Assembly: GCF_018350175.1 (NCBI RefSeq)
Contig: NC_058368.1
Span: 8,122,001 to 8,186,000 of the forward strand
Reading direction: 5' to 3'
DNA length: 64,000 nt
Source of the DNA: Felis catus
Lineage: Eukaryota
Position 1 is the first letter of the stretch, and each line of letters starts with the position of its first letter. The notes beneath the pieces were generated by a model. That model saw nothing but the letters and a program-made list of their open reading frames with translations. It ran no database searches and was not told where the DNA came from. Shown here in pieces: positions 29,916-46,179 of the stretch. A program made the translations under genes and the position numbers.

Positions 29916-30119
29916 AACAATTTAATTTAAAAAATATAGGTGTGAAGAACCAGATTATTTGTGATATAATTATTAACTATAAAATTAAGTATATAGAATG
30001 TACTTACCAAATTTATATAAAATTATCACTATAATATAATGTAAATCTAAGTAATGTACATTATAATTATTCCATAATTCTACAACATTTTTAAGTTTGA
30101 AATGTAGCTTGTTTCCATG

Positions 30120-30612
30120 AATGAGAAGGATGTGGAGAAAAGGGACGCCTCGCGCACTGCTGGTGGGAGTGCCACTGTGGAAAACAGTATGGAAGGTTCC
30201 TCAAAAAATTAAACATAGAACTACCATATGGCCCAGTAATGGCACCACCGGCTACTTACCTAAAGAAAACAAAAACACGAATTTCAAAAGACACATGTAC
30301 CCCTTTATCTATTGAGGCCTTACTTGCAATAGCCAAGATACGGAAACAAGCCCCGTGTCCACCCAGAGATGAATGGATAAAGATGTGCTATGTGTATACG
30401 ATGGAATGTTACTCGGCCGTATAAAAGCCCGAGATCTTGTCACTGGCAACGACATGGATGAACCTGGAGGGTAGAACGCTGAGTGAAGTAAGTCAGAGAA
30501 AGCCACATACCAAATGATTTCCCTTGTCGGTGGAATCTAAAAAACAAAACAAGTGAATAAAGAAACCCAAAACAGAAACAGACCCGTAATACAGAGAACA
30601 AACTGATGGTCC
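30120..30612 (+). mobile_element. Carnivore L1 3' fragment
   Basis: ggatgtggagaaaaggga...gatgaatggataaagatgt...tgagtgaagtaagtcagagaaag. Confidence 0.9.
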
Positions 30613-30619
30613 CTAGATT

Positions 30620-30832
30620 CTTTTTTTTAATGTTTATTTGTTTTTGAGAGACAGAGAGACAGCGTGCAAGCGGGGGAGGGGCGGAGAGAGAGGGAGACAC
30701 AGAATCCGAAGCAGGCTCCAGGCTCCGAGCTGTCGGCACCGAGCCTGATGTGGGGCTTGAACTCACGAAACTGCAAGATGATGACTTGAGCCGAAGGTGG
30801 ACGCTTAACCGACTGAGCCACCCAGGCGCCCC
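30620..30832 (-). mobile_element. CanSINE
   Basis: Reverse-complement body. Confidence 0.95.
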
Positions 30833-31105
30833 AGGATTCTTTACGATAGAAAATTATTGTTTCAAATTTCTTTTGCTTCCATGAGTGTAGCTCCTCGGAA
30901 ATCTAACGTTAAGAATTTCTCTAGCAGTGGTTTGTTCTACAAATATCTATTAAACTCCCCCTATGAGCCAGACACTATTCTAAGGTGAGAGATACGGTAT
31001 GTAAGACAAAATTCTATTTTTTATGTCCCTTTTGGCAGGGAACATAGACAATATTTAAAGCATACATAAATAAGAAAATGATAATTTCATAAAGAAAATA
31101 AAATG

Positions 31106-31224
31106 GAGGGCGCCTGGGTGGCACGGTCGATTAAATGTCCGACTTCGGCCCAGGTCATAATCTTGTGGTTCGTGGTTCAAGCCCCATGCTGGGTTCCACA
31201 CAGCACGGAGCCCGCTTGGGATTC

Positions 31225-31256
<32 letters not shown>

Positions 31257-31280
31257 CCCCTCCCCCACTTGCACTCACTC
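31106..31280 (+). mobile_element. CanSINE, tail lost
   Basis: Head and (CT)n. Confidence 0.85.
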
Positions 31281-33329
31281 AACAGGTCAGAGAACAATGT
31301 TAGCTATGATGACCAATCTGAATTATATTTGAGTTGAGACCAGGGTGGGGAGAAGGACTGAGCCTTGTGAGAAGCATTACAGGCATGAGGGAGAATAAGT
31401 GCAAAGGTCCTGAGGTGGGTACGATACCGGAATGCTTAAGGAGCAGGGTTCAGTGTGGTAAGAATCCGTATGAAAGACAGCAAGCGGGTGGTAAGAAATG
31501 AGGTCAGAGAATTAGGCAGGGACGAAATCACAGTGACTCTTCGGCCAGGTAAGGAATTTTAATTTTAGTCCATGGCAATGGGAAGCCATTGGAGGACTTC
31601 AATTTGTTGACAGTTTGATAAGATGTATCTTTTAAAGACAAGAAATAAAGCACAAATGTTTGGTAATATACACGCTTTTATTTCATAAAGCAATTCTGTG
31701 GGGTAGGTGTTATTTCGTCTCATTATAGACCCACTACAGAGACTCAGAGAAGTTGTGCGACCGTATAGCTCGTAGGCGGCATGGTTGGGAGGGGAACCAG
31801 GGGCTCCTGCATCCCGGGTAATTCACTTGCAAGGAAAACAAACAGTAGTCTACAATTCATACATTACCCTCACCATATGACTGAATCAAACGGACACACG
31901 AACTCTCCTGGGGCCACCTCCCCTGGTACAGGCTTTTAAGGAAGTAACTAAGGAACTCAGTCTGTGTCACCCTATGTGATTGCACCACGACTGGAAAATC
32001 TGAGACCTGGGTTGCCACATCTGACACCTCCCCCAGTCGTTCCTCGGCTGGCCCGGCTCATCCCTCAGGCAGCTGCAGGCTGAGGAAACATCCCACCCAC
32101 TCGGTGGTCTCTGTTTTATCTCTGGGTCCCCAGAGTGCTGCTCTTGGTTAACTGGACAGTCCCTCAGCTGGGACGTGCCAGCCCGTGCTTGCATTTTCTC
32201 TGTTCAGTCCGGATAGCCTGCTGTAGGGCCCTTCACCCACGTAGCTGTCTGGGATCTGAATTTGGCCTTCTTAAACAAGCAGGCAGCTGATGAGATATCT
32301 AGAGCAGTTAAACTCCTACAAACAGAAAGTAGACTGATGTTGCCAGGGGCTGGGGGGAGGGGGGGAGTGAGGAGTTGTTGTTTACTAGGGACAGAGTTTT
32401 AGTTTCGCAAGATGAAATAATTCTGAAAATCTGTTGCCCAACAACGTGGATACACTTAATACTACTGAATCGTACGCTTAAAAATGACCAAGAGGGTCAT
32501 TTTGACCACAGTTTGGGGGGGAAAAAGCAGATAAGCAATGAGCCTGGTATGCTCATGGACTGCTGTGCCCTTCTCCTCTGAGCTGTTCGCTCAAAGACAG
32601 AGCTCTGCTTCCGAGTGGAGGCATGGGCTTTGGTAATGAGACTCCTCGGCCTCTCGTCCGGTGGCATGGCTGAGAGCCCACTACTCTGGAATCTCTCTGA
32701 GGACAAAGACCATTTCTTTACCCTACCCCATCGATGCCTTCATCCACACCAATCCCCAGCAGCCCTTCTTGTCAAAGTCACAATGCTTTTCACTTTTCCA
32801 AATCCACGGGCCACTTTCTTGCCCTTCTCTATCTTTGACACAGCCGACCTCCTTGAAACGCACTCTTCTCTTGGTTTCCGGACTACCCGGTTTCCTCCTG
32901 ATTCACTAAAGATTTTAGATTCTTTTGCTGTCTCTACCTCTTCTCAACAGTTAAACACCAGCATACTCCAGGCTCCGTCATTGACTTTCTCTCTTCTCTC
33001 AGCATTTTCTTTCTAGATCATCTCATCCAGCCTTCGATTTACATACAAGTCTCTGTGGACAACTCCCAAATTTGTGCATTCATTCGGCTTGGGCTTCCTC
33101 CCTAAGCTCTAAAATTATGCCTCCAGCTGCCTCCTCGACCACTCCACTTGGATGTCTATTACGTTCATGGAGAATTTTCAATTCATGGGGGGAGGGGTAT
33201 ACACATGAAGTCATTTTGTGTTTTCCTATGGCTACCCAATTATGCTGCTCTGGATGGTCAAGAATCTTGGGATAGTTCAGTCCAATTGTATAGTGCTGAG
33301 ATTATGAAAGCTGTCTCATTACAGATTTA

Positions 33330-33523
33330 ATTTTTTTTATTTTTTATTTTTAGAGAGAGAGCATGAGTCGGGGAGAGAGGCAGGGGGAGAGAGAGAATCT
33401 CAAGCTGGCTTCATGCTGATCAGCACAGAGCCCAATGTGGGACTCAGGGCCACGACCCTGGGATCATAACCCGAGCTGAAATCAAGAGTCAGACACTCAA
33501 CCGACCGAGCCACCCAGGTGCCC
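33330..33523 (-). mobile_element. CanSINE (older subfamily)
   Basis: aatcaagagtc motif; flanking ctcatt.cagattt duplication. Confidence 0.9.
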
Positions 33524-33827
33524 CTCATTCCAGATTTTAAAATCTCAGTACTGAGCGTACTTAAATATTATTTTGATGGCCAATTCTCTGTCTAGGACAG
33601 GAAGTGTGTACAAACACCAGAAACATCTTAGAACACCAGAAAATAAGGACTCAATCAAAGAATTCTGGAGCCATTCCCAAAAAATTCAGGAGCCAACTCG
33701 AAGAGTCTCCCTCTATCTAAAAGTGGAAACATTTGAGCAACAATATAAAAATAATAACTGCGGTGAATTAAATATATTAAAAGCGATTAACTATATAGTT
33801 CATAATGAAACTTAAAAAAAAAATCAC

Positions 33828-34020
33828 AGGGTGCCTGGGTGGCTCCGTTGGTTATTTGACTTCGGCTCAGTCATGATCTCGTGGTTTGTGAGTCTGAGTC
33901 CCGCATCGGTGAGCTCGAGCCTCGATTAGGTGAGCCTACTTCTCTCTCCCTCTCTCTGCTCCTCATGGGATTGCCTCTCTTCTCTGCCCCTCACTCGCTT
34001 ATTCTCTCTCTCTCAAAAAA
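33828..34020 (+). mobile_element. CanSINE (divergent)
   Basis: Head and (CT)n. Confidence 0.85.
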
Positions 34021-34114
34021 ATCTCAACTCATTTGTCCTATTTGGAAAATGCTGGGGAACCAAGACATCATTTTGACAACTTGTAAGCAGGGAGAAATAG
34101 TAAATTTTCATGTT

Positions 34115-34330
34115 TTTTTTTTTAATTTTTTTTAACGTTTATTTATTTTTGAGACAGAGAGAGACAGAGCATGAATGGCGGTCAGAGAGAGGGAGACACA
34201 GAATCTGAAACAGGCTCCAGGCTCTGAGCGGTCAGCCCAGAGCCCGACGCGGGGCCCGAACTCACGGACCGTGAGATCATGACCTGAGCCGAAGTCGGCC
34301 GCCCAACCAACTGAGCCACCCAGGCGCCCC
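34115..34330 (-). mobile_element. CanSINE
   Basis: TSD taaattttcatgttt. Confidence 0.95.
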
Positions 34331-34383
34331 TAAATTTTCATGTTTAAAATGAGGCTCAGGGTAACAAAGTAGTTGATGAGGAG

Positions 34384-34510
34384 AAAGAAAGAAAAGAAAA
34401 GAAGAGAAAGGAAAAGAAAAGAAAAGAAAAGAAAAGAGAAAAGAAAAGAAAAAGAAAAAAGAAAAGAAAAGAAAAGAAAAGAAAAGAAAAGAAAAGAAAA
34501 GAAAAGAAAG
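34384..34510 (+). repeat. (GAAAA)n simple repeat
   Basis: Read directly. Confidence 0.95.
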
Positions 34511-36277
34511 GAAAACCGGAAAATGGCAAGTGTGGGCAAGGGTACGGAGAAATCAGAATTCTTATGTACTGTTGGTGGGAATGTAAAATCGTGCAGTCAC
34601 TATGGAAGACTGTATGAAGATATTATGCTAAGAGAAATAAGATAGCCACAAACACACAAAGAGTATCTGGTTCCACTTCTAGGAGGTATCCAGGGTATTC
34701 AGATTTGTAGAGACGATTACTATTAGCTCAGGGGAGGGAGAAGGGGGGAGTTGTTTCATGGACATGGGGTTTCAGATTTGGACGATGAAAAAGTCTTGAA
34801 GGTTGGCCACATAACAATGCGAATGCCCTTAACGCCACTAAACTTTACACTTGAACATGGCTCAGATGGTAAACGTTATACGTATGCTTTTACTGCAAGA
34901 AAAAAAGATGGAGACCAGACAATGGGATATTACCTTCCTCCTGGGGAGGAACGTAGCATCACCTATGAAATAGTGTTCCCCCAAAATCAAAACCATTGAC
35001 ATTTGATCGGGCCGCTGGATCTCACTACCAGTTTACAGAAAATGCAGGGACAGAGGAACATGTTAAACAACGTCACATGGAAGCAATCAGCAAAATCCAG
35101 ACTGTGGGAAACTGCAGGAAAGCAACCGAGTTTCTTCAATAAATAAGTTGCAAGAGAAAACAGTAGGAGGAGGAAACCATAGATTAAGAGTCTTAGAAGA
35201 CATAAAAACCGGTTGCAATATATGGAATTATTTGGGTCCTGATTCAAACAAACCACACACACACACAAAAGTATGACATACTCAGGGAATATGTGATCAT
35301 ATTCAGCGATCTTCTGGCTGTTTTTAGGTCCTTATCTTCTGGAGACTCACACTAGAATATTTATGGGTGGAATGGTATAATAACTAAGATTTGCTTCATA
35401 AGAATTGGGGCTGGGAAAGTCGGAGGAAATTGATGCAATGTGCTTGGCTGTGAGTCATCATTACTGAGGCCGATTGGTAGAAGCCACTACACTCTTTTTG
35501 CTCTACCTTTTTGCCTCTTATCCTGCACAGTTCAACGTTCTCTTTATAGAATGTTCAGCAAAGGGGATGGGAGCACGGTCTGCAAAAACGGTCACTCTCC
35601 CTCGCCCAGTGACTTGGCCTACCCAGCCGACAAGAGGTGGGGTAGAGTGGGTGGCGGCACCTTCTCGTTGAGCTGTCCACATGAGAGCCGGTCTCCTCTC
35701 TCTGGACTGCCAGAGCCTCTCACCCACTCTGACTTGTGTGTGGCAGGGTCCGCATGCCGGGTGTCTCCCGCAGCATGTCCGGGGGTTCTGGATGAGTCTT
35801 CGGATGGCCATCTTTGCCGTGCAGTCCCCTGGCATGGAGGTCTGACCCCGCCTCCAGCTTCAGCTGGTCCCAACCTCAGGCCCCAGCACAGCTCCTCGGG
35901 TTGCCCCTGCCTGGAGGACACAACTCTGGGCGGGGTACTTGAATATAGCTCAAGCCCAGCCATATTCCGAGCTGTGTACAAAACGCATAGGAAAGCCATG
36001 TGTCCGTCTCTTCCACTACTCTTCCCACATCCGGGCGGCATCAGACAATGTCTGGCAACTTGTAGGTAACAGACAGAACTGAGGCTGGGATGGGGGTCGA
36101 GTTGGGCCCATTCACCCTTTACAACTGATTCCTTGGGGGCTTTTCTCCTTGACGAGAAGCTCCCATGGCCAGGCTGAGCCTGCAAGGTAAGTTCTACTAG
36201 CTCAAGTATTCCAAATAGGGAAAGGTCCGAATTTCGTGTGAAATATAGAATTGGCAACTGGAATAAGCTTGTTGATT

Positions 36278-36539
36278 TTTTTTAATGTTTCTGTGATGTT
36301 TGTTCATATTTGAGAGAGAGAGAGAGACACACAGTGCAAGCTGGGGAGGGGCAGAGAGAGGGGGAGACACAGAATCCGAAGCAGGCTCCAGGCTCCACAG
36401 AGCCGGACGTGGGGCTCGAACCCACGAACTGTGAGATCATGACCTGAGCCAAAGTCGAGCGCTTAACGACTAAGCCACCCAAGCGCCCCTAAGCTTGTTG
36501 ATTTTTTTAAATGACTCTGTGTTTTTGTTTTTCTTTTTT

Positions 36540-36585
<46 letters not shown>

Positions 36586-36990
36586 CACAAGTCAGGGAGA
36601 GGGGCAGAGAGGGAGAGAGAGAAAAAATCTTTTTTTTTTTTAAAATTTTTTTTTCAACGTTTTTTATTTTTGGGACAGAGAGAGACAGAGCATGAACGGG
36701 GGAGGGGCAGAGAGAGAGGGAGACACAGAATCGGAAACAGGCTCCAGGCTCCGAGCCATCAGCCCAGAGCCTGACGCGGGGCTCGAACTCACGGACCGCG
36801 AGATTGTGACCTGGCTGAAGTCGGATGCTTAACCGACTGCGCCACCCAGGCGCCCCGAGAGAGAAAATCTTAAGAAGGCTCCATGCTGAGTGTGGAGTCT
36901 AATGCGGGACTCAGTCTCACAACTCTGGGATCATGACCCAAGCCAAAATCAAGAGTCCAACGCTCAACTGACTGAGCCACCAGGCACCCC
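36278..36990 (-). mobile_element. Cluster of three CanSINEs (~36278-36489; ~36535-36990 with nested young copy ~36630-36856)
   Basis: TSD aagcttgttgattttt; nested TSD gagagagaaaa(a)tctt. Confidence 0.9.
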
Positions 36991-37062
36991 TAGAAGCTGA
37001 GTTCTTAATCTCCATGTACTACCTATAATAAAACACTAAAAACATTTACCCAGTTAGGAGAT

Positions 37063-37110
<48 letters not shown>
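37063..37110 (+). repeat. (GATA)n microsatellite
   Basis: Read directly. Confidence 0.95.
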
Positions 37111-37189
37111 TAGATATCATATAGGTAGATATAGATTATATGTATTTAATATTCAAGTTAAAATTCATTGACCGTCTGAGATACAGGGC

Positions 37190-38480
37190 TTGTGAAAAGT
37201 TTAATCTGTATAGTCATTAAATCCTTACATATTGAACACTGCTTCTAAATTATCATAGAAACTAGTTGCCAAAAAATGTTAATCTCAGCTGGACTGGAAG
37301 AGCATTTGGGAAATGTGCCAATGTTGTTTGTAGAGGTGTTCCATGTTGTAAGTCTACCGGAGACCCAGAGGGATCTGCCTTTGTGGAATTTGAAACAAAA
37401 GAACCAGAAGCAAAACCTATTGAGGTAAGCCCGGATTCTAAAAAGAGGAAAAAAATTAGCGTATGTTCTAAATAGTAAGAATCTTTTTGGTAACCGTTTC
37501 AGTTACTTAATCCACCATCAGAGGCACCAAGAAAACCTGATGTATCCCCGAAGCCAGTAAAAATAAACCCTTTCATGCCCTGAAAGTACCTAGTGAGTTA
37601 TTTACTTGACATTTAAGTAGATGTAGCTGGAGTAAAATGAAACTCGTGATGGCACTCTGGCAGGAGAAACGAAAAAGAAGAAGAAGAAAGCCTGAATGAA
37701 GGGGGATATGAATGAACGATGAATATGTTGGGGCCAGAGTTGGAAAAGGACACAAGCAGCCAGAGCTCCTGTAAAGACATCCTCAAAGCAAAAAGCAAAA
37801 ACAAAAATGGGAAGGAGTTCAAGTAGCCAGCTTACCTGAAGTCAGCATGGAAGGGGAAGAAGGGAAATACCTTTGCAGATGCAGAATGCCCCCTCCCAAT
37901 CAAAAATAAAGAAAATGGTCCAGAAAAACAACATTAAAAATTTTTTTCTTTATATTTATTTATTTTTGAGACAGAAAGAAACAGAGCATGGGCGGGGGAG
38001 GGGCCAAAAGAGAGAGGGAGGCACAGAATCCGAAGCAGGCTCCAGGCTCTGAGTCGCCAGCACAGAGCCCGACCCGGGGCTCGAACCCACGACCCGTGAG
38101 ATCATGACCTGTGCCGAAGTCGGACGCTTAACCAACCGAGCCACCCAGGTGCCCCCCAGAATAACAACATTTTAAAAAGAAGCTTCAGAAATGCCCCAGA
38201 GAAAATGAAGGTAGGACTACTTTCAGGTTAGGAATGGATTAAGTTACATTCCACTCATTACATAGCGACAAACGTTTTCGCCGGATTTTTAATTTCTCAA
38301 GATGTAGAAGTCTTTACTAAAGAGGAAACAGGATACCGGACACGTAAAACATGGATCCCTCTTACAAGCAAAAAGGAAGCATGAAGAAAAAAAAGGGACA
38401 CAAGGTCAAAAGAATAGGTTATACAATTAATAGTACCTTCAAAGGAAGCCTATGGTATAAATTCTATGCCTGGCAATTGA
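37190..38480 (+). pseudogene. LARP7: Partial, intron-containing LARP7 pseudogene fragment: end of intron 4, exons 5-8, start of intron 8
   Basis: Exon 37259-37424 reads [53 protein letters not shown], about 37/53 identical to recalled human RRM1 ([53 protein letters not shown]). Exon 37503-37592 reads LLNPPSEAPRKPDVSPKPVK. Exon 37664-38210 has the Lys run, SLPEV and KEASE. Exon 38302-38443 reads DVEVFTKEE..SLLQAKRKH..VIQLIVPSK. GT-AG introns of 78, 71 and 91 nt separate them. Stops, frameshifts, a SINE inside exon 7 and a dead exon 8 donor (ggaagc) show it is non-functional. Confidence 0.92.
37936..38156 (-). mobile_element. CanSINE inserted in LARP7 pseudo-exon 7
   Basis: TSD cagaa(a/t)aacaacatt at 37921-37935 and 38157-38171. 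Confidence 0.95.
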
Positions 38481-38509
38481 TATACACTCCAAGGTTAAAC
38501 TATGGTTCT

Positions 38510-39152
38510 TTTTAAAGTTTTTACTTAAATTCCAGTTAGTTAACATACAGTGTAATATTAGTTTCAGGTGTAAAATATACTGACTCAACACTTTCACACA
38601 TCACCCTGTGTTCATCACAAGTGCAACCCTTAATCCCCACCACCTATTTTAACCCATCCCCCATCTGGTAACCATCAGATTGTTTTCTATAAAGTTTTTT
38701 TTTTAACTTTTACTTATTTTTCAGAGACAGAGACAGAGCATGAATAAGGGAGGGGCAGAGAGAGGGGGAGACACAGAATCTGAAACAGGCTCCAGCTGCT
38801 GGCACAGAGCCCGACGCGGGGCTGGAACCCACCAACCACGAGATCGTGACCTGAGCCGAAGTCGGACGCCCAATCGACTGAGCCACCCAGGCGCCCCAAG
38901 ATTGTTCTCTACAGTTAAGAGTCAGCCTCCTGTTTTGCCTCTGTCTCTCTCTTTACCTTTGCTCATCTTTTTTTTTTTTAATTTCACATATGAGTGAAAT
39001 CATATGGAATTTGTCTTTCTCAGACTGACTTATTCCACTTAACAGTCTTACGTTGTTACAAATGGCAAGATTTCATTCTTTTTTATGGCTAATAATCCAT
39101 TATGTATATATATATATCAATCACATCTTTTTTTTTTTTTTCTTTCTCATAT
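38510..39152 (-). mobile_element. Carnivore L1 3' end, 5'-truncated at the telomeric repeat
   Basis: ttaacatacagtgtaatattagtttcaggtgta...aatggcaagatttcattcttttttatggct. Confidence 0.85.
38695..38897 (-). mobile_element. CanSINE nested in L1
   Basis: TSD-like agattgtt(t/c)tcta. Confidence 0.95.
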
Positions 39153-39202
39153 CTAGGGCTAGGGTGAGGGTTAGGGTTAGGGGTTAGGGTTAGGGTGAGG
39201 GT
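39153..39202 (+). repeat. Interstitial telomeric repeat, 8 units (TTAGGG with CTAGGG/TGAGGG variants)
   Basis: CTAGGG CTAGGG TGAGGG TTAGGG TTAGGGG TTAGGG TTAGGG TGAGGG read directly. Confidence 0.9.
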
Positions 39203-40156
39203 ATGTGCCTGCCGTTCAGAAATATCTCCAGAGAATAAGACCCCAGAGTTCTGCTGGGGTGAGAATTAACATGGCTGCCATCTACCATGTTGATATAAAG
39301 AGGGGATTTGCGTCTCTAAATACTGTTTAGATATTCAGTTGTTCCTTTTTTTTATCTCTACCTTCACACCCACTTGTTGAGATATCAACACTTCTTAAAT
39401 ATTTGGTGTCTTCTCCAGAATAACTAGGCTGTTCCTCAACTTTTCTTCTTGTGTTTTTAGGAACCCAACCCTCCTAGGTCAAGGGTTAAAGTCAGGGTGA
39501 GGGTATGTGAAGTTAGGCTGTTTCAATAGCTATGATAATTAGCTTTGAAAGCCTACATTTTTAATATTTGCACAGATATTATCATTGCGAAGACCATCGT
39601 ATTTGTATGCGTTCCTTGACCTTATAAAAGAAGGCAGACAGAGGTGGAAGGAAAAACAACACAACACTGTTTGCTTAAATCTCGAATGACTCAATGCTAT
39701 TTAATGAGAGCACATCATGTACCAAGCAGTAAAGTAGGATTTAGGGGAATTCCCAAGGGAATCTCCAAGAGTCATTTTTATATCTAGGATTTGTTTGAAG
39801 AAAATTTAGAAGTCCCCTTGGACATGCTGTTCAGCTAAATCCCTTAGCTCACTATACTTTACAATATTTAGAACTCTATCTCTCTTGCATAATAATCAAA
39901 GTAAAGATTTGTTGGTTTCATCCGCTATAGGGACACTTCATAATGCCGGCCTATGTTTGGCTCAAGATATAAAAGTTGGTTATTTATTTCTTATTTAAAA
40001 ATTGTTTATGTTAAAGGCAAATTATATTTCATCTTTAGGGAAAGATTAGGTTTGGTATCTAAGACAAATGTATTTAATTTTTCTATGTAACCAAAATATG
40101 ACAGAGATTAATTCAGGCCTTTTTTCTCTTTCCTAAATAAAGTTGGTAGGTAATTG

Positions 40157-40685
40157 TATCAGTCACTTACTGTTACATTACACATTATCTCAAAGCTCAG
40201 AGGCTTAAACCAACAATAAATATTAGCTCAGACTTGATGAGGGTCAGAAATTTGGGAAAGGCTTAGGTGGTAGTTCTGGTTCAGGGTCTCTCTACAGGTT
40301 GAAGTGAAGAGGTTGGTGGGGGCTGCGGTTACACCTGAAGACTTGAGTGGGACTGGAGGGTCTGCTTCTAGGATGATTCACTCATGTGACTGGTAAGTCA
40401 ATATTGGCTGTTGGTAGGACACCTCAATCCCTCATCATATCCCCCCTTATACAGCTGATGGAGTGTCCTTACACCGTGGCCGACTTTCCCAAAGCAAGTG
40501 GTCCAAGTAAGCAAGACAAAAGCCCTAATGTCCTGTATGACCTTGCCTCCAAAGTTACACACTGTCATTTTCACAATAACCTATCGGTTACATGGGTCAC
40601 CCTATTCGGCAGGAGGGGAATACATAGGGACATAAAAACCAGGTAGCAAGAATCCCTGGAGACCATTTTCCAGGCTGGCTAAGAC
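40157..40685 (-). mobile_element. MLT1 (MaLR) LTR
   Basis: ggcttaaaccaacaataaat...gggtcagaaatttggga..ggcttag. Confidence 0.75.
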
Positions 40686-40779
40686 AGTAATCAAGGCGCA
40701 TTGGGAACCCATAGCTCCAAAATAAAACGTCGCTCGTATGGGGAGCATGAAACACGATGTAGCACATATTCTATAAAGT

Positions 40780-41236
40780 ATGGTATGGCAGATTGTTACA
40801 GAAATAGCCCCCAAAGAATCATGTCTCCCTAAACCCATGGTCTTGCATAGTTCTCTCTCTCACGACTCTGGGACTGGCCATACAACTTGCTTTGGCCAAT
40901 GGGATATTGGCGATGTAATGCAAGCAATGGTATGAAAAGCAAATGTACATTTGGACTTGCCCTTTTATGCCACTGGAGATTCTTCCTTCACCACGTTAAC
41001 AAGCCCAAGCTAGCCCTCTGGAGGCGAAAGAACACATGGAGAGAGACCAGCCAGATCAGCCAACTTAGCCAAGGCCCACCGACATGAATAAACACTACCA
41101 ATGGCCCTCAGAGCGTAGACGAGGTCTCCCCGCGGAGCACAGCCCAAATTACCAACCTATAAATAGTGAATAAGTAGTTGTTTTAAGCGACTAAGTTCTG
41201 AGTAGTTTCTTATGCAGCAATATATATATCTGACAC
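40780..41236 (+). mobile_element. MLT1 (MaLR) LTR
   Basis: cttgctttggccaatggga...ttgttttaagcgactaagtt..gtagtttcttatgcagcaata. Confidence 0.8.
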
Positions 41237-41317
41237 ATTTGGAATGCAATGATCCTTCCAATTTTGTCTTGGGAGAAATCACACAAGTCATAAAGCCGCA
41301 GAAGAAATAACTCTTCA

Positions 41318-41885
41318 GAACTGTGGTAATAGGGTAACCACTAGTCACGTGTAGCTCTCGAGCTCTCGGAGTGTGGCTAATCTGAATTAAGATGTGCTCT
41401 AACTGTAAAACACACACTGGGTTTTGAAGACTTCACATGGAAAAAGGAAACGTAAAATATCTCATTAATGTAAAAAATTCAGTACATGTCGAAATGATAT
41501 TATTTGGGGTTATAGGAGATTAAGTCAAGTATATCATTAAAATGAGTTTCACCTGTTTCTTTTTAACAATGTTAAAAATGTTTCAAAAATATGGCTCCTA
41601 GGGGTGCTGGGTGGCTCAGTTGGTTGAGGATCTAACTCTTGATTTCAGCTCAGGTCATGATCCCTGGGGATCGAGCCCCACATGGGGCTCACGCTGAGCT
41701 GGAGCCCCTGACCCTCTCCCCCACTCACGCATGCACTCTCTCTCTCTAAAATAAAACAAATAATAACAATAATTAAAATGGGAATAAAATATAAATACAT
41801 ATTTTAAAAATATGGCTCCTAGAAAACTTGAAATTACATATATGGCTCATGTTTATGGCTCATATTATATGCCCATCGGACTGTG
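41318..41885. mobile_element. MER33/MER3-like hAT-Charlie fossil split by a SINE
   Basis: ccactagtcacgtgtagct...gatgtgctctaactgtaaaacacacactgggttttgaagac. Confidence 0.8.
41601..41810 (+). mobile_element. CanSINE nested in MER33
   Basis: TSD aaaaatatggctcctag. Confidence 0.9.
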
Positions 41886-44039
41886 TCCTTCCTGGCTACC
41901 AGGAGAACTTTCAACCGTGACCATTGTTCTGTGCCAAGCTCTGTTCCCACAAATCAAGGGAAACAGAAGCTTCAGACCTCAAGGCCACTTTCTAAATCCC
42001 AATTCCACCACCCCCACCCCGCACCCACATACACGTACTATATAATCCTGTCCTTGGCCCCCATTCTGCTGTTTTCCTATCAGAACAGCCTCTCGAGAAA
42101 AGGTCTAAATTCGTTCACGCTACTTGTAAAATTCAATGGTAGCTTAAAGGTTTCCTATGATTTTCATTTTACAGTAGAAAGTAGATGCGTAAAGATTTGA
42201 AGATCCAAGGGTGAAATCATCAGGGATAAGTCAAAAGAGTTGTTTTCTTTTCCTCTCCATGTCCTCTCTCCTACCTCTCTATGCCCCAAGTAGTGGTTGA
42301 GAGGGAAATAGGCCTGGGAGGAAAAGACGAGACAGATGATAGACATAGTCTTATCTGGAATAGACTACACTCCACCTACATGTCCTGATGGTGCTTTCAT
42401 AATCAGGAGGCAAAAAGCCTTTCGCTGTGTCCTTGATGGAATCCTTCCTAAAACCCTTTCTACTCAGCTGAATACTACCCGGATCCATTGCTATAGGCTG
42501 CAATACACTTGACAAGCCCAGAAATGTGCAGAGAAAGGGACCCTGTGAAGGATTTTTGTTCATACATAGTAGCCCGTTATCCTTCCCCAGAGCAATCCAT
42601 TCTTACATTCATGCAGGAAAGAATTGGGTTGCAAACTTATGATCCATATGGCGTTTCTCTATGAAAATACTACTTAGAACTATCATGGGGGTGCAGCATC
42701 GGGGGGGGGGATGGAATATGTATGCACACTTCATTGTATTTTCTTTCTTACACCTAAATGAAACTATTCACCCATCAGCAGTACAGTACATATGTTGAAT
42801 ATATTTTAGAGAATAGATGGATTTTCACTGCCGTCCTCCCTCCCTTGTGATCAACATACGCACCAAGAAATCTCTGAGACTCTGTATTCTAAACAAGTAC
42901 GATGAATAATGATACTTGCCATGTATGCTTAGGGAGGCCACAAGCAGCAGAGAACTTTGTACAGAAATGAATTTGCATGTTGGTTCCGGAATTTATGACT
43001 TGATTTTGGGTGCACCATTTAACCTCTTTGAGCCTTATCTAGAAAATGACAACAAGGATATTTTTCTCATCGGGTTCAGGTGAGAATCTCTAGGGTGCCA
43101 TGTTTAAAGCATCAAACACAGGGCAGGGCACACGATAAAGGGTCTCGGTGAAGGTTGGTCTCATTGAGCTTTCCTTTCCCTTCTTCTACTTAAGACATGT
43201 GCTCTGGGAGCTAACGGCATCACTTCAGTTCTGACGTTTTGAGTGACCACAGGCAAGAACCTGAATTAAATCTCTCTAGTCTGAAAGCAGAATGTTATTA
43301 TTGTTACCACAACCAAGGATGAAAAGAGCCTTTCTTCTAGAAGTTTGCCACGTAAGGTGCAACTCACTGATTCAGACTTCCAGCTATGACCGGGCAAACC
43401 AGCTCGAGACAAATAACAAATGTGTTAATTAGTGAAATGAAGTGAATAAAGCAGTGGCTCAAGAGGTTTCGGTGTGGTTGTGTGAATGGCAAGTCCAGAC
43501 AGGATGGGTTTTGGTGGGGGGGTGGAAAAGGGTAGGAAGTCACCATCTTGGTCCAGCTTATTGGGAAAGGCTTTGTTGGAGAAGTCTGATTTTAGGATTA
43601 TTTGAATATTGGAAGGAGGACGGCTTTTGAGCTGGGCATGAAGGGGTGTTTCCGGGACAGGGTGTGGCTTGGGAGACAGTTCAAAGGACGGACAGAGAGG
43701 ATCTTGCTGTAAAGGAGAGGAGATACCCAATTACAATCAACATTATTCAAAATCAGTAGGGAAGGAGTAAGTCGCTGACCTATAACAAGAGACGGGTGGG
43801 ATCAGTGGGTGAGGCTTCTGAAAAGCCGGAAGCAAAAGTGAGTCTTTCAGAAATGCACAAGAATGTTTCCATGGGTATTGGCCCAACTAGAGTGAGGTGC
43901 AGGGACTTGGAGTCATTCTAAAGGGAGCTGTCTGTGTGGAAGCTCTCACGAGGAAAAACCAAAGGGATTGGGGACTGGTTCACTTGGACAGCAGATGGCT
44001 TAGGAGAGACTTAAATTCTCTTCATTTTTTACAAGACTC

Positions 44040-45080
44040 CTGAATAGAAACTTCTCTGAAGAAGGTACCCAAGAGGCCAATAAGCAACGAAGAGATGTTC
44101 AAATCATTAGTCATAAGGGAAATACAAATCAAGACCACAATGAGATACCATTTCACATCCACTAGGGTGACTAAAATAAAAAAGACAGACAATAGCATGT
44201 TAGCAAGATATGGAGAGAGTAGAACCCTCCTACACGGCTGGTGTGAACGTAAAATTGTGCAGCCTCTTTGCAAAACAGTGCAGCAGTTCCTCAAATGGTT
44301 AAACACGGAGCCGCCATATGACTCATCAATTCTACTCCTAGGTATGTGTATACCCAAGAGAAATGAAAACTTTTGTCCACAGAAAAGCTTGTACATGAAT
44401 GTACATGGCAGGATTGTTTACCATAGCCAAAAAATGGAAACGATCCAAATATCCATCTATTAATGAGAGGACAAATGAATGTAGAATATCCACACAATGG
44501 AATATTACTTAGGGATGAAGTGGTGATACACGGCACAGCACGGATAAACCTTGAGGACATTATGTTATGTGGAAGAAGCCAGTCAAAACAGACTACCTAT
44601 TGTATGGCGCCATTTATATGAAATGTCCAGATAAATAAGTCTATTGAGACAGAAAGGAATTTGGTGATTGCCTAGAGTTTGGAGGGGAAAGAGAAGACTG
44701 GGGGAAGTAAAGACTGACTTCAAATGGGCACATGGTTTTTTTGAAAGTGATGAATGTGTTCTTTTTTTAAATATTTATTTATTTTTGAGAGAGAGAGAGA
44801 GAGCGGGGGAGGGGCAGAGAGAGAGGGAGACATAGAATCCAAAGCAGGCTCCAGGATCTGAGCTGTCAGCCCAGAGCCTGATGCGGAGATAAAACCCATA
44901 GACCACAAGATCATGACCTGGGCTAAAGTCGGACGCTTAACTGACGGAGCCACCCAGGCACCCCATGATGAGTGTGTTCTAAAATTGATTGTGGTGCCAG
45001 TTGCACAACTCTGTGAAATACTAAAACTCATTGAACCGCACACTTAAGTGGGTGAGTCATACGGCATATGAATTATATTC
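44040..45080 (+). mobile_element. L1MB-like ORF2 end plus 3' UTR
   Basis: Translates to SLVIREIQIKTTMRYHFTSTRV, the L1 ORF2 C-terminus. Confidence 0.9.
44762..44964 (-). mobile_element. CanSINE nested in L1
   Basis: TSD tgatga(a/g)tgtgttct. Confidence 0.95.
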
Positions 45081-45300
45081 TATCACATAATTGTATATTT
45101 CCAACTACAGAATGATGTTGTGCCCCAGGACGGAACAATTGGGCTGCCAGTAATAGACCCAATATTATGGTCCAGCAAACCTTGCTCAGGCTATCTGTCT
45201 TATCCTCAGAGACCACTAAGCTGGGTTGCACACAGCACCCCCAAGGCCTGTGGAAACTTAAGCCAAGTCTACTCCTACGAAATTTCGGAGGGTTCCTGAT

Positions 45301-45670
45301 GCTGGTGTGCTAGTACACGTTCAATAACTCACTGACTCTCTGGTGGGAAGAAACTTCTAGCACAGCCAGTTTCCCTGGTGGGAACATTGCCACGATGGAC
45401 AATCTCAAGCTACCAACGCGGTAGCACTGAGGATAAAGTGGAGAAGAGAAAGGTGGTCATATATCGTCATAGAGTATTTCCACAATTCCAATACGATAGA
45501 TGTAAATAACCTTGAAAGCATGCCAAATAGCAGCATGTGAAAGAATTAGGGAGTGATGAGTTTTGATCATTTAATATCTTTTTTTTACACGGTTTATTTC
45601 ATTGTAAGCTTGCATAATTAGTGGGAGTTTTCTTTTTCTTCCTGTTTAAATAAAACATCCAGCGTTTACC
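45301..45670. mobile_element. MER63-like hAT fossil
   Basis: tggtgtgctagta...tcaagctaccaacg...gatgtaaataacct...ggagtgatgagttttga. Confidence 0.7.
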
Positions 45671-46179
45671 AGATTTACCTCCCCCCCCCCCAACATGCTG
45701 CCCGTGCTCGCGAAGAAGCAACAAGGGGACAAGAGGGCAGGTGGGGACAGCAGGCGGTTTAATGCCTTCTCTACACTCTCGGGAAAAGGTAAGGCTCTAG
45801 GGACATTCTTCCGTTCACCATTAGTGAATCTCTAAGTCATCGGAGATTTGGCTCGAACCTACCACGGCCACCCTGGAGTCCACGGAAGCACGTCAGAATG
45901 GAATTCACGTGGAAAATGCTACAGACATTTTCAGGCCGTTGGCCCTGACAGCTTGAGGTAATATGTTTAGAACAGAATCCAGGCTTGTTTTGTTGGTCTC
46001 TTTTGTTTGTTTGTCAAAACGAAAGGAACCTTTAAAGATAGAGAGTGGGCTATCCAGGGCCTCCTAGGAGGGTCCCTTCTTCTCCCAGCGAGCTGGGACT
46101 CATCCTGGACCTTCCCCCCACCCCATGCAGCTTCCACAGCCTTTTGTTTTTATTTCTAGTACTGCACCCAGTCAGCAAG

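Follow-up and report, generated by a model that had tools for sequence, protein, structure and literature searches.

Semi-processed retropseudogenes, which retain introns, are a textbook category. A family of retrocopies derived from MIR302CHG, the host gene of the miR-302/367 cluster, was described in placental mammals by Pan & Lin (2020), who distinguished the forms T1 (E1-E302-E3) and T2 (E1-E3); in the excerpted text of that paper all T1 and T2 copies start at exon E1 and are fully spliced (PMC7692494). For retrocopies of mir-373 the same authors suggested a Drosha-made 5′ end, and the idea of a Drosha product as a template for L1 is thus already in print; in those cases, as the excerpts describe them, the hairpin itself was copied, the tail is directly attached and the mechanism was called unclear (PMC7692494). 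Here we describe an element at 37148-38491 of a 64,000-nucleotide stretch of the cat genome (the window, G000:C1:8122001-8186000), which resembles on the plus strand an intron-containing fragment of the LARP7 gene. Its template is the antisense host RNA of the miR-302/367 cluster, transcribed by RNA polymerase II, and not LARP7 mRNA; the minus strand has the sense of this RNA. Comparison of the element with its parental locus and its dispersed relatives indicates that it is probably a semi-processed retrocopy of L1 type, made from the polyadenylated fragment that remains when Drosha cleaves MIR302CHG RNA.

A sequence-only reading of the window had already proposed a retrocopy of the antisense pri-miR-302/367 transcript, and this proposal is now supported at both breakpoints. 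The spliced MIR302CHG retrocopies of Pan & Lin (2020) were unknown to that reading, and their prior publication lowers the novelty of the present case.

The parental locus and the shared 3′ end

Homology searches covered the window's own 2.43-Gb assembly, and a genome search with window positions 37150-37935 located the real LARP7 gene on the minus strand of G000:C11. Exons 4 to 8 of this parent form an open 280-codon frame with AG/GT at each boundary, and exon 5 matches LARP7 with E=1.2e-33. Parental positions are given below as q, where q1 is C11:110653092 and the numbering runs in the LARP7 sense: exon 4 lies at q127-210, intron 4 at q211-350 and exons 5, 6, 7 and 8 at q351-515, q596-689, q760-1113 and q1209-1353, respectively. 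As the sequence-only reading had stated, the microRNA cluster is antisense in intron 8; Rfam models place the mir-367 hairpin at q1397-1464, and the four mir-302 hairpins (mir-302d, a, c and b) reach out to q2073. A TATA box and E1 at q~2243-2137 and a poly(A) site at q282 delimit a host transcript of ~1.95 kb, a geometry that fits the human primary transcript, which is 1974 nt long, starts 153 nt upstream of miR-302b and ends ~12 nt past the poly(A) signal (PMC4703056). Facts about the host gene were drawn from excerpts of PMC7692494, PMC8159989 and PMC4703056.

Plus-strand translation of 37150-38520 gives four pieces of LARP7-like reading frame, broken by stops and frameshifts, and the 41-residue translation of the exon-5 copy matches human LARP7 (PDB 4wkr_A, residues 145-184) with E=1e-11. 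In a global alignment the body of the copy, 37148-38491, corresponds to q282-1399, with 814 of 1018 aligned columns identical (~80%; 560/685 exonic and 254/333 intronic columns) and with ~45 extra bases relative to the parent near the left end. Alignment to the parent on C11 confirmed the four exons (5 to 8) and the introns of 78, 71 and 91 nt that had been recognized in the letters alone. With all three introns present a processed LARP7 mRNA pseudogene was rejected, as the earlier reading had also concluded, and the tails of the sibling copies described below sit on the antisense strand, not at the LARP7 sense 3′ end. The copy begins 71 nt into the 140-nt parental intron 4; the depth of ~70 nt estimated previously was therefore right, while the position assigned to it (~37200) has to be moved to 37148. 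At the other end, similarity had been thought to fade ~30 nt into intron 8, but it continues to 38491, 46 parental nt into that intron.

Searches with the parent as query, together with the window-query search, returned, in addition to the parent, nine dispersed copies: the window copy, C1b (C1:128579583-128580933), C17a (C17:~75203234-75204098), C17b (C17:~50645870-977), C2 (C2:165765210-353), C47, C31, C18 and C15. One further row was left out, a low-complexity match of 43 nt (C1:186991631-673) to the lysine-rich (AAG)n part of exon 7. When the E3 region was aligned, similarity to the parent was lost at one and the same base, q282, in eight of the nine copies, the ninth (C15) being without this part. 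The base lies 17 nt downstream of an antisense AATAAA (q304-299). Just outside it stand runs of 27 T residues in C17a and 22 in C17b, degenerate T-rich runs in C1b and C18 and short T runs in C31 and C2; no T run is found there in C47 or in the window copy. C17b is flanked by a perfect target-site duplication (TSD; 15/15, reached by 0/2000 shuffles) and C2 by one of 12/14 (85/2000 shuffles); TSDs were non-significant for C1b (430/2000) and C17a (1289/2000). The shared q282 end, the T tails and the TSDs thus identify these sequences as L1-type retrocopies of an RNA antisense to LARP7, and the left end of the window copy is the poly(A) site of that RNA, the miR-302/367 host transcript MIR302CHG. 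This is the left breakpoint that the sequence-only reading had anticipated, although not with the signal it had picked: the ATTAAA near ~37200 is a plus-strand tttaat inside the ~45 extra bases, and the homologue of the parental AATAAA is a decayed signal reading AATGAA on the minus strand at 37164-37169. The cleanest L1 hallmark in the family belongs to C17b (G000:C17:~50645833-50645992), a ~95-nt, heavily 5′-truncated copy running from q282 to ~q375.

A plain DNA-level (segmental) duplication of a 1.1-kb LARP7 piece would account for the introns kept in the window copy and for the lack of a surviving tail or TSD beside it. However, the copy and its parent lie on different contigs (C1 and C11), and homology between their surroundings is limited to repeats over 40 kb. 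Sensitive BLAST comparison of the flanks (30000-37160 and 38480-46000) with parental q-1500 to 290 and q1380 to 4000 gave only repeats or chance matches. In keeping with the sequence-only reading, neither exon 4 nor exon 9 was found around the window copy, and a permissive Rfam scan of 34000-43000 returned no mir-302 or mir-367 match at E<=1; homology into exon 4 or through the hairpins was looked for at this locus and not found. Because both ends of the copy are RNA-processing sites of the antisense transcript, and seven more dispersed copies have the left end in common with it, poly(T) tails and TSDs being present in some of them, we consider a duplication highly improbable.

The right end and the mir-367 Drosha site

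The 22-mer of hsa-miR-367-3p, as listed in the excerpted parts of PMC10965815 and PMC7601472, is identical to parental antisense q1421-1400, which places the 3′ Drosha cut between q1400 and q1399. The last matching bases of the window copy are q1397-1399 ('cca', 38489-38491), and its right end is the base following the 3′ end of miR-367-3p. A second copy, C1b, ends '...cca(t)', which corresponds to q1399 or q1400. The right breakpoint thus falls at the mir-367 Drosha site, as the sequence-only reading had predicted. That reading had offered two forms of the template, the post-Drosha 3′ fragment and the terminal exon of the host gene; the former agrees with the breakpoint, whereas the latter does not describe the copy, E3 covering q282-528 only and the host intron being retained.

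C1b is without q529-974; it uses a strong antisense donor, CTGTAG/GTAAGC, and the same E3 acceptor as the T1 and T2 copies, the parental splice sites of the q529-974 intron reading ...CTGTAG/GTAAGC at the donor and ...CTTTTTAG/GTTCGG at the acceptor. The flanks of C1b and the window copy are different, and their Kimura two-parameter (K2P) distances to the parent are 0.21 and 0.28, respectively. With splicing, flanks and divergence all different, C1b represents an independent event. It also carries a T-rich tail and later insertions of a short interspersed element (SINE) and an L1.

Truncation at the 5′ end is the rule for L1-mediated copies, and the shared end could in principle have arisen if an uncleaved, unspliced pri-miR-302/367 was the template and reverse transcriptase (RT) stopped beside the mir-367 hairpin, by truncation or stalling, with no role for Drosha. 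Five copies are without E1, and the three other than the window copy and C1b are truncated elsewhere, at ~q375 (C17b), q407 (C2) and ~q1135 (C17a); the hairpin itself, just upstream on the template, is stable (-46.5 kcal/mol, z=-6.7). Against arrest of RT, two independent copies stop at one base, ±1, that was predicted beforehand from the end of the mature miRNA, and if truncation points were spread uniformly over 1945 nt, at least two of five copies would end no more than 3 nt from the cut with a probability of 1.3e-4. Moreover, the hairpin has a 13-nt lower stem beyond the cut, so that RT stalled at the base of the stem would have stopped 13 nt earlier, yet the lower-stem strand is present in both the window copy and C1b. 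RT also passed the full mir-302a hairpin in the T1 copies, which contain it whole; mir-367, 302d, 302c and 302b are in no copy of this genome. The lower-stem strand in both copies and the read-through of mir-302a make a stall at the stem base unlikely, and we judge RT arrest on an uncleaved transcript to be an unlikely source of the shared end overall.

A fixed transcription start would likewise give two copies a common 5′ end, and several isoforms of human MIR302CHG are annotated (PMC7692494, in the excerpts used). If the template were a capped transcript from an internal promoter just downstream of mir-367, the match to the Drosha site would be coincidental, and such a start would have to match the 3′ end of miR-367-3p to within one nucleotide. 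A single TATA-like element was seen, at q~2243, upstream of E1. To our knowledge no published isoform starts just downstream of mir-367, and we regard such an origin as very unlikely.

The sequence-only reading had also cautioned that an L1 at 38510 might hide the true boundary. L1 homology to the right of the copy starts only at ~38500-38512, past the end of the copy, and the L1 therefore does not mask the boundary. A template-switch chimera with this neighbouring L1 was rejected, the L1 being on the opposite strand and starting 9-21 nt off.

Several points weigh against the window copy being a retrocopy of a Drosha fragment. Over its last 46 nt, identity to the parent is only 65%, and the exact position of its right end is therefore good only to ~1-3 nt. 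The end at the Drosha site is defined by only two copies, both from one genome, and the probability calculated for their coincidence assumes that truncation points are uniform. At the left end of the window copy there is no poly(T), (GATA)n and AT-rich sequence standing there instead, and no TSD is significant (a free search was matched by 323/2000 shuffles and a fixed-position search by 3637/5000), in line with the absence of both noted by the sequence-only reading; the candidate pair AGTTAGGAGATGAT / GGTTAAACTATGGT beside the copy was dismissed as chance. Uncapped RNA with a 5′ monophosphate is expected to be degraded by 5′-3′ exonuclease. Finally, the dating presented below uses distances to the parent, and selection acts on part of that parent's sequence.

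According to the reading that we favour, in which the template was the polyadenylated fragment downstream of the mir-367 cut, Drosha would have cleaved the primary transcript, nascent or complete, at its last hairpin, mir-367, in early-embryonic or germline cells. The downstream ~1.1-kb fragment, presumably uncapped with a 5′ monophosphate, would have escaped degradation, and its 3′ end would have been formed by cleavage and polyadenylation at the usual host-gene site, in LARP7 intron 4. It would then have either stayed unspliced, giving the window copy, or spliced an internal donor to E3, giving C1b. The L1 machinery, acting in trans, would have copied the RNA in full, starting at the poly(A) tail and reaching the extreme 5′ end, with insertion on another chromosome. 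The window copy has since gained a SINE and would have lost its tail to a (GATA)n microsatellite. Since the host RNA crosses LARP7 exons 8 to 5 in the antisense direction, the copy resembles an intron-containing LARP7 gene fragment. On balance we lean towards the broader view that L1 can mobilise an uncapped, polyadenylated downstream product of Drosha, of which the window copy and C1b would be ~60-90-million-year-old snapshots.

Anatomy, siblings and age

Read as RNA on the minus strand, the body of the copy (37148-38491) is the unspliced 3′ part of the host transcript, with the 3′ Drosha cut of mir-367 at one end and the poly(A) site at the other. The equivalent of the terminal exon E3 (q282-528) lies at 37148-37437 on this strand and comprises, in plus-strand terms, the 3′ part of intron 4, exon 5 and 13 nt of intron 5; the position of its acceptor was set by the E1/E3, E302/E3 and E2-like/E3 junctions in C31, C47, C15 and C1b. 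It adjoins the retained host-gene intron at 37438-37835 (minus strand; parent q529-974, spliced out in C1b), which is bounded by an antisense AG (plus 'ct', 37438-37439) and an antisense GT (plus 'ac', 37834-37835).

On the plus strand the LARP7 exon 5 copy, encoding part of RRM1, occupies 37259-37424 (83.6% identical to the parent over 165 columns) and is followed by the copies of intron 5 (37425-37502, 78 nt), exon 6 (37503-37592), intron 6 (37593-37663, 71 nt), exon 7 (37664-38210, with stops and frameshifts and interrupted by a SINE), intron 7 (38211-38301, 91 nt) and exon 8 (38302-38443, 88.9% identical over 135 columns). The first 46 nt of intron 8 close the copy at 38444-38491; on the RNA strand they consist of the 13-nt lower-stem 3′ strand of the mir-367 hairpin and 33 nt more. 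The SINE in exon 7 (37941-38178, minus strand) is a later insertion of the carnivore-type tRNA-derived kind, in which the window is generally rich, and has a duplicated target of ~14-18 nt, aacaacatt(t)taaaaa. The window copy shows no sign of function and is a dead copy.

To its left, a (GATA)n microsatellite and an AT-rich tract fill 37063-37147, where poly(T) would be expected for a minus-strand retrocopy. The (GATA)n portion, ~15 units at 37063-37125, sits exactly at the expected tail position and was possibly born from the retrocopy tail. To the right, short interstitial telomere-like arrays of the (TTAGGG) type with variants are found at 39150-39205 and 39475-39505; they directly follow a 3′-truncated L1 ORF2 fragment (~38500-39130) that holds a SINE at ~38700-38900, and this patchwork at ~38500-39505 suggests repair or rearrangement.

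Four of the siblings have E3 joined to E1 or E302, all at canonical antisense GT-AG sites: C31 and C47 join q528 to q2138-2210 (E1/E3), and C15 and C18 join it to an exon with a mir-302a-like hairpin (q~1715-1817; E302/E3). The five cat rows in Table S2 of Pan & Lin include T1S2 (~68.62 Mb, SINE-interrupted), T1S3 (~5.78 Mb), T2S1 (~109.2 Mb, SINE-interrupted) and T2S4 (~13.08 Mb, 331 bp) (PMC7692494, excerpted). Structure, SINE interruption and approximate coordinate suggest that C18 is T1S2, C15 is T1S3, C47 is T2S1 and C31 is T2S4, whereas the window copy, C1b, C17a, C17b and C2 are none of the five cat rows in the table as excerpted. In an alignment of the nine copies and the parent, the window copy has the E3 homology with the 3′ end of the family, is without E1 or E302 and keeps q529-974, and it is thus a new structural type, neither T1 nor T2.

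The excerpted text of Pan & Lin states that human exon E2 is missing from all of their retrocopies (PMC7692494). The C1b donor, which lies between mir-367 and E3, may correspond to E2, and C1b may be the first retrocopy evidence for an E2-like donor outside human. 'LARP7' occurs 0 times in the main text of that paper. Literature searches on Drosha-fragment retrocopies and on LARP7P loci yielded only Pan & Lin (2020) and one unrelated GWAS review. In these searches, which did not extend to the supplementary PDF and alignments of PMC7692494, no intron-retaining copies mimicking LARP7 gene fragments were found; within the same scope, supplementary alignments again excepted, there were no copies starting downstream of a Drosha cut and none with a donor between mir-367 and E3.

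The assembly also contains a young chimeric retrocopy on the minus strand of G000:C16 (~76042540-76043750). It begins with 72 nt of MIR302CHG E1, 71 of them identical to the parent and with the same 5′ start as the T2 copies, and the E1 splice donor is joined exactly to an HMGB1-like mRNA comprising a 13-nt leader, an open reading frame with one stop, a 3′ untranslated region and an A-rich tail. A TSD of 17-18 nt, GAAAAA(A)CACTAAATCA, flanks this copy, which is absent from the excerpted cat rows of Table S2. The splice-precise junction suggests either trans-splicing or an E1 promoter copy that once lay upstream of HMGB1 exon 2.

Over the shared E3 region the K2P distance of the window copy to the parent, 0.28, lies near that of C18 (T1S2; 0.30). 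The other values are 0.36 for C15 (T1S3), 0.19 for C31 (T2S4), 0.13 for C47 (T2S1), 0.21 for C1b and 0.18 for C17a. T1S2 and T1S3 have been dated to the Laurasiatherian ancestor and T2S4 and T2S1 to the Carnivora ancestor (Pan & Lin, PMC7692494, excerpted). At 37170-37225 the window copy moreover agrees with C18 in sequence states, among them extra bases after 'TTGACC', that are not in the present parent or the younger copies, which points to a later deletion in parental intron 4/E3. Given its K2P distance near that of C18 and the states common to both, the window copy probably dates from about the same time as the Laurasiatheria-wide MIR302CHG retrocopies.

Significance and relation to known retrocopies

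The published MIR302CHG retrocopy family gains a structurally new class and, in the cat genome, five further single-gene copies and one chimeric copy that are absent from the excerpted published cat list. The window copy also presents a trap for pseudogene annotation, in that an intron-containing gene fragment on another chromosome is explained by an RNA route via the antisense strand; some annotated mammalian 'unprocessed pseudogene fragments' may, by the same token, be retrocopies of antisense non-coding RNAs. Should Drosha indeed have made the shared 5′ end, the two copies would record the exact in vivo cut at mir-367 and would show that transcription went on after cropping as far as the host poly(A) site, which was then used; C1b would record splicing of the cropped fragment, after or despite cleavage. 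It would follow that a fragment downstream of an intronic or long non-coding RNA (lncRNA) hairpin can survive, be polyadenylated and even be spliced, and that it can become available to the L1 machinery in cells of the germline or early embryo. This would bear on the order of Microprocessor cleavage, splicing and 3′-end formation on lncRNA microRNA hosts, and retrocopy 5′ ends could then serve to map ancestral Microprocessor cleavage genome-wide.

Among known systems, the window copy has in common with the T1 and T2 copies, as the excerpts of Pan & Lin describe them, the parental RNA, the 3′ end at the same poly(A) site, the E3 sequence, a presumed L1 mechanism and a presumed embryonic setting. 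Unlike them it is without E1, keeps the host intron (hence LARP7 exons 6 to 8 with their introns) and starts at the mir-367 Drosha cut. Compared with the mir-373 retrocopies, its template would be the fragment downstream of the cut, polyadenylated at a normal site that a signal specifies 1.1 kb away, so that no unknown step is needed. On the plus strand it looks like an unprocessed LARP7 pseudogene, with exons 5 to 8, introns, stops and frameshifts; however, its ends are antisense RNA-processing sites and no flanking homology accompanies it, in contrast to what an unprocessed or duplicated pseudogene would present. Like the semi-processed retropseudogenes, it is a reverse transcript of a polyadenylated RNA that was not fully spliced, and it departs from the usual member of that category in that its visible introns are those of the opposite-strand gene, which its template had no cause to remove, its own retained intron being q529-974.

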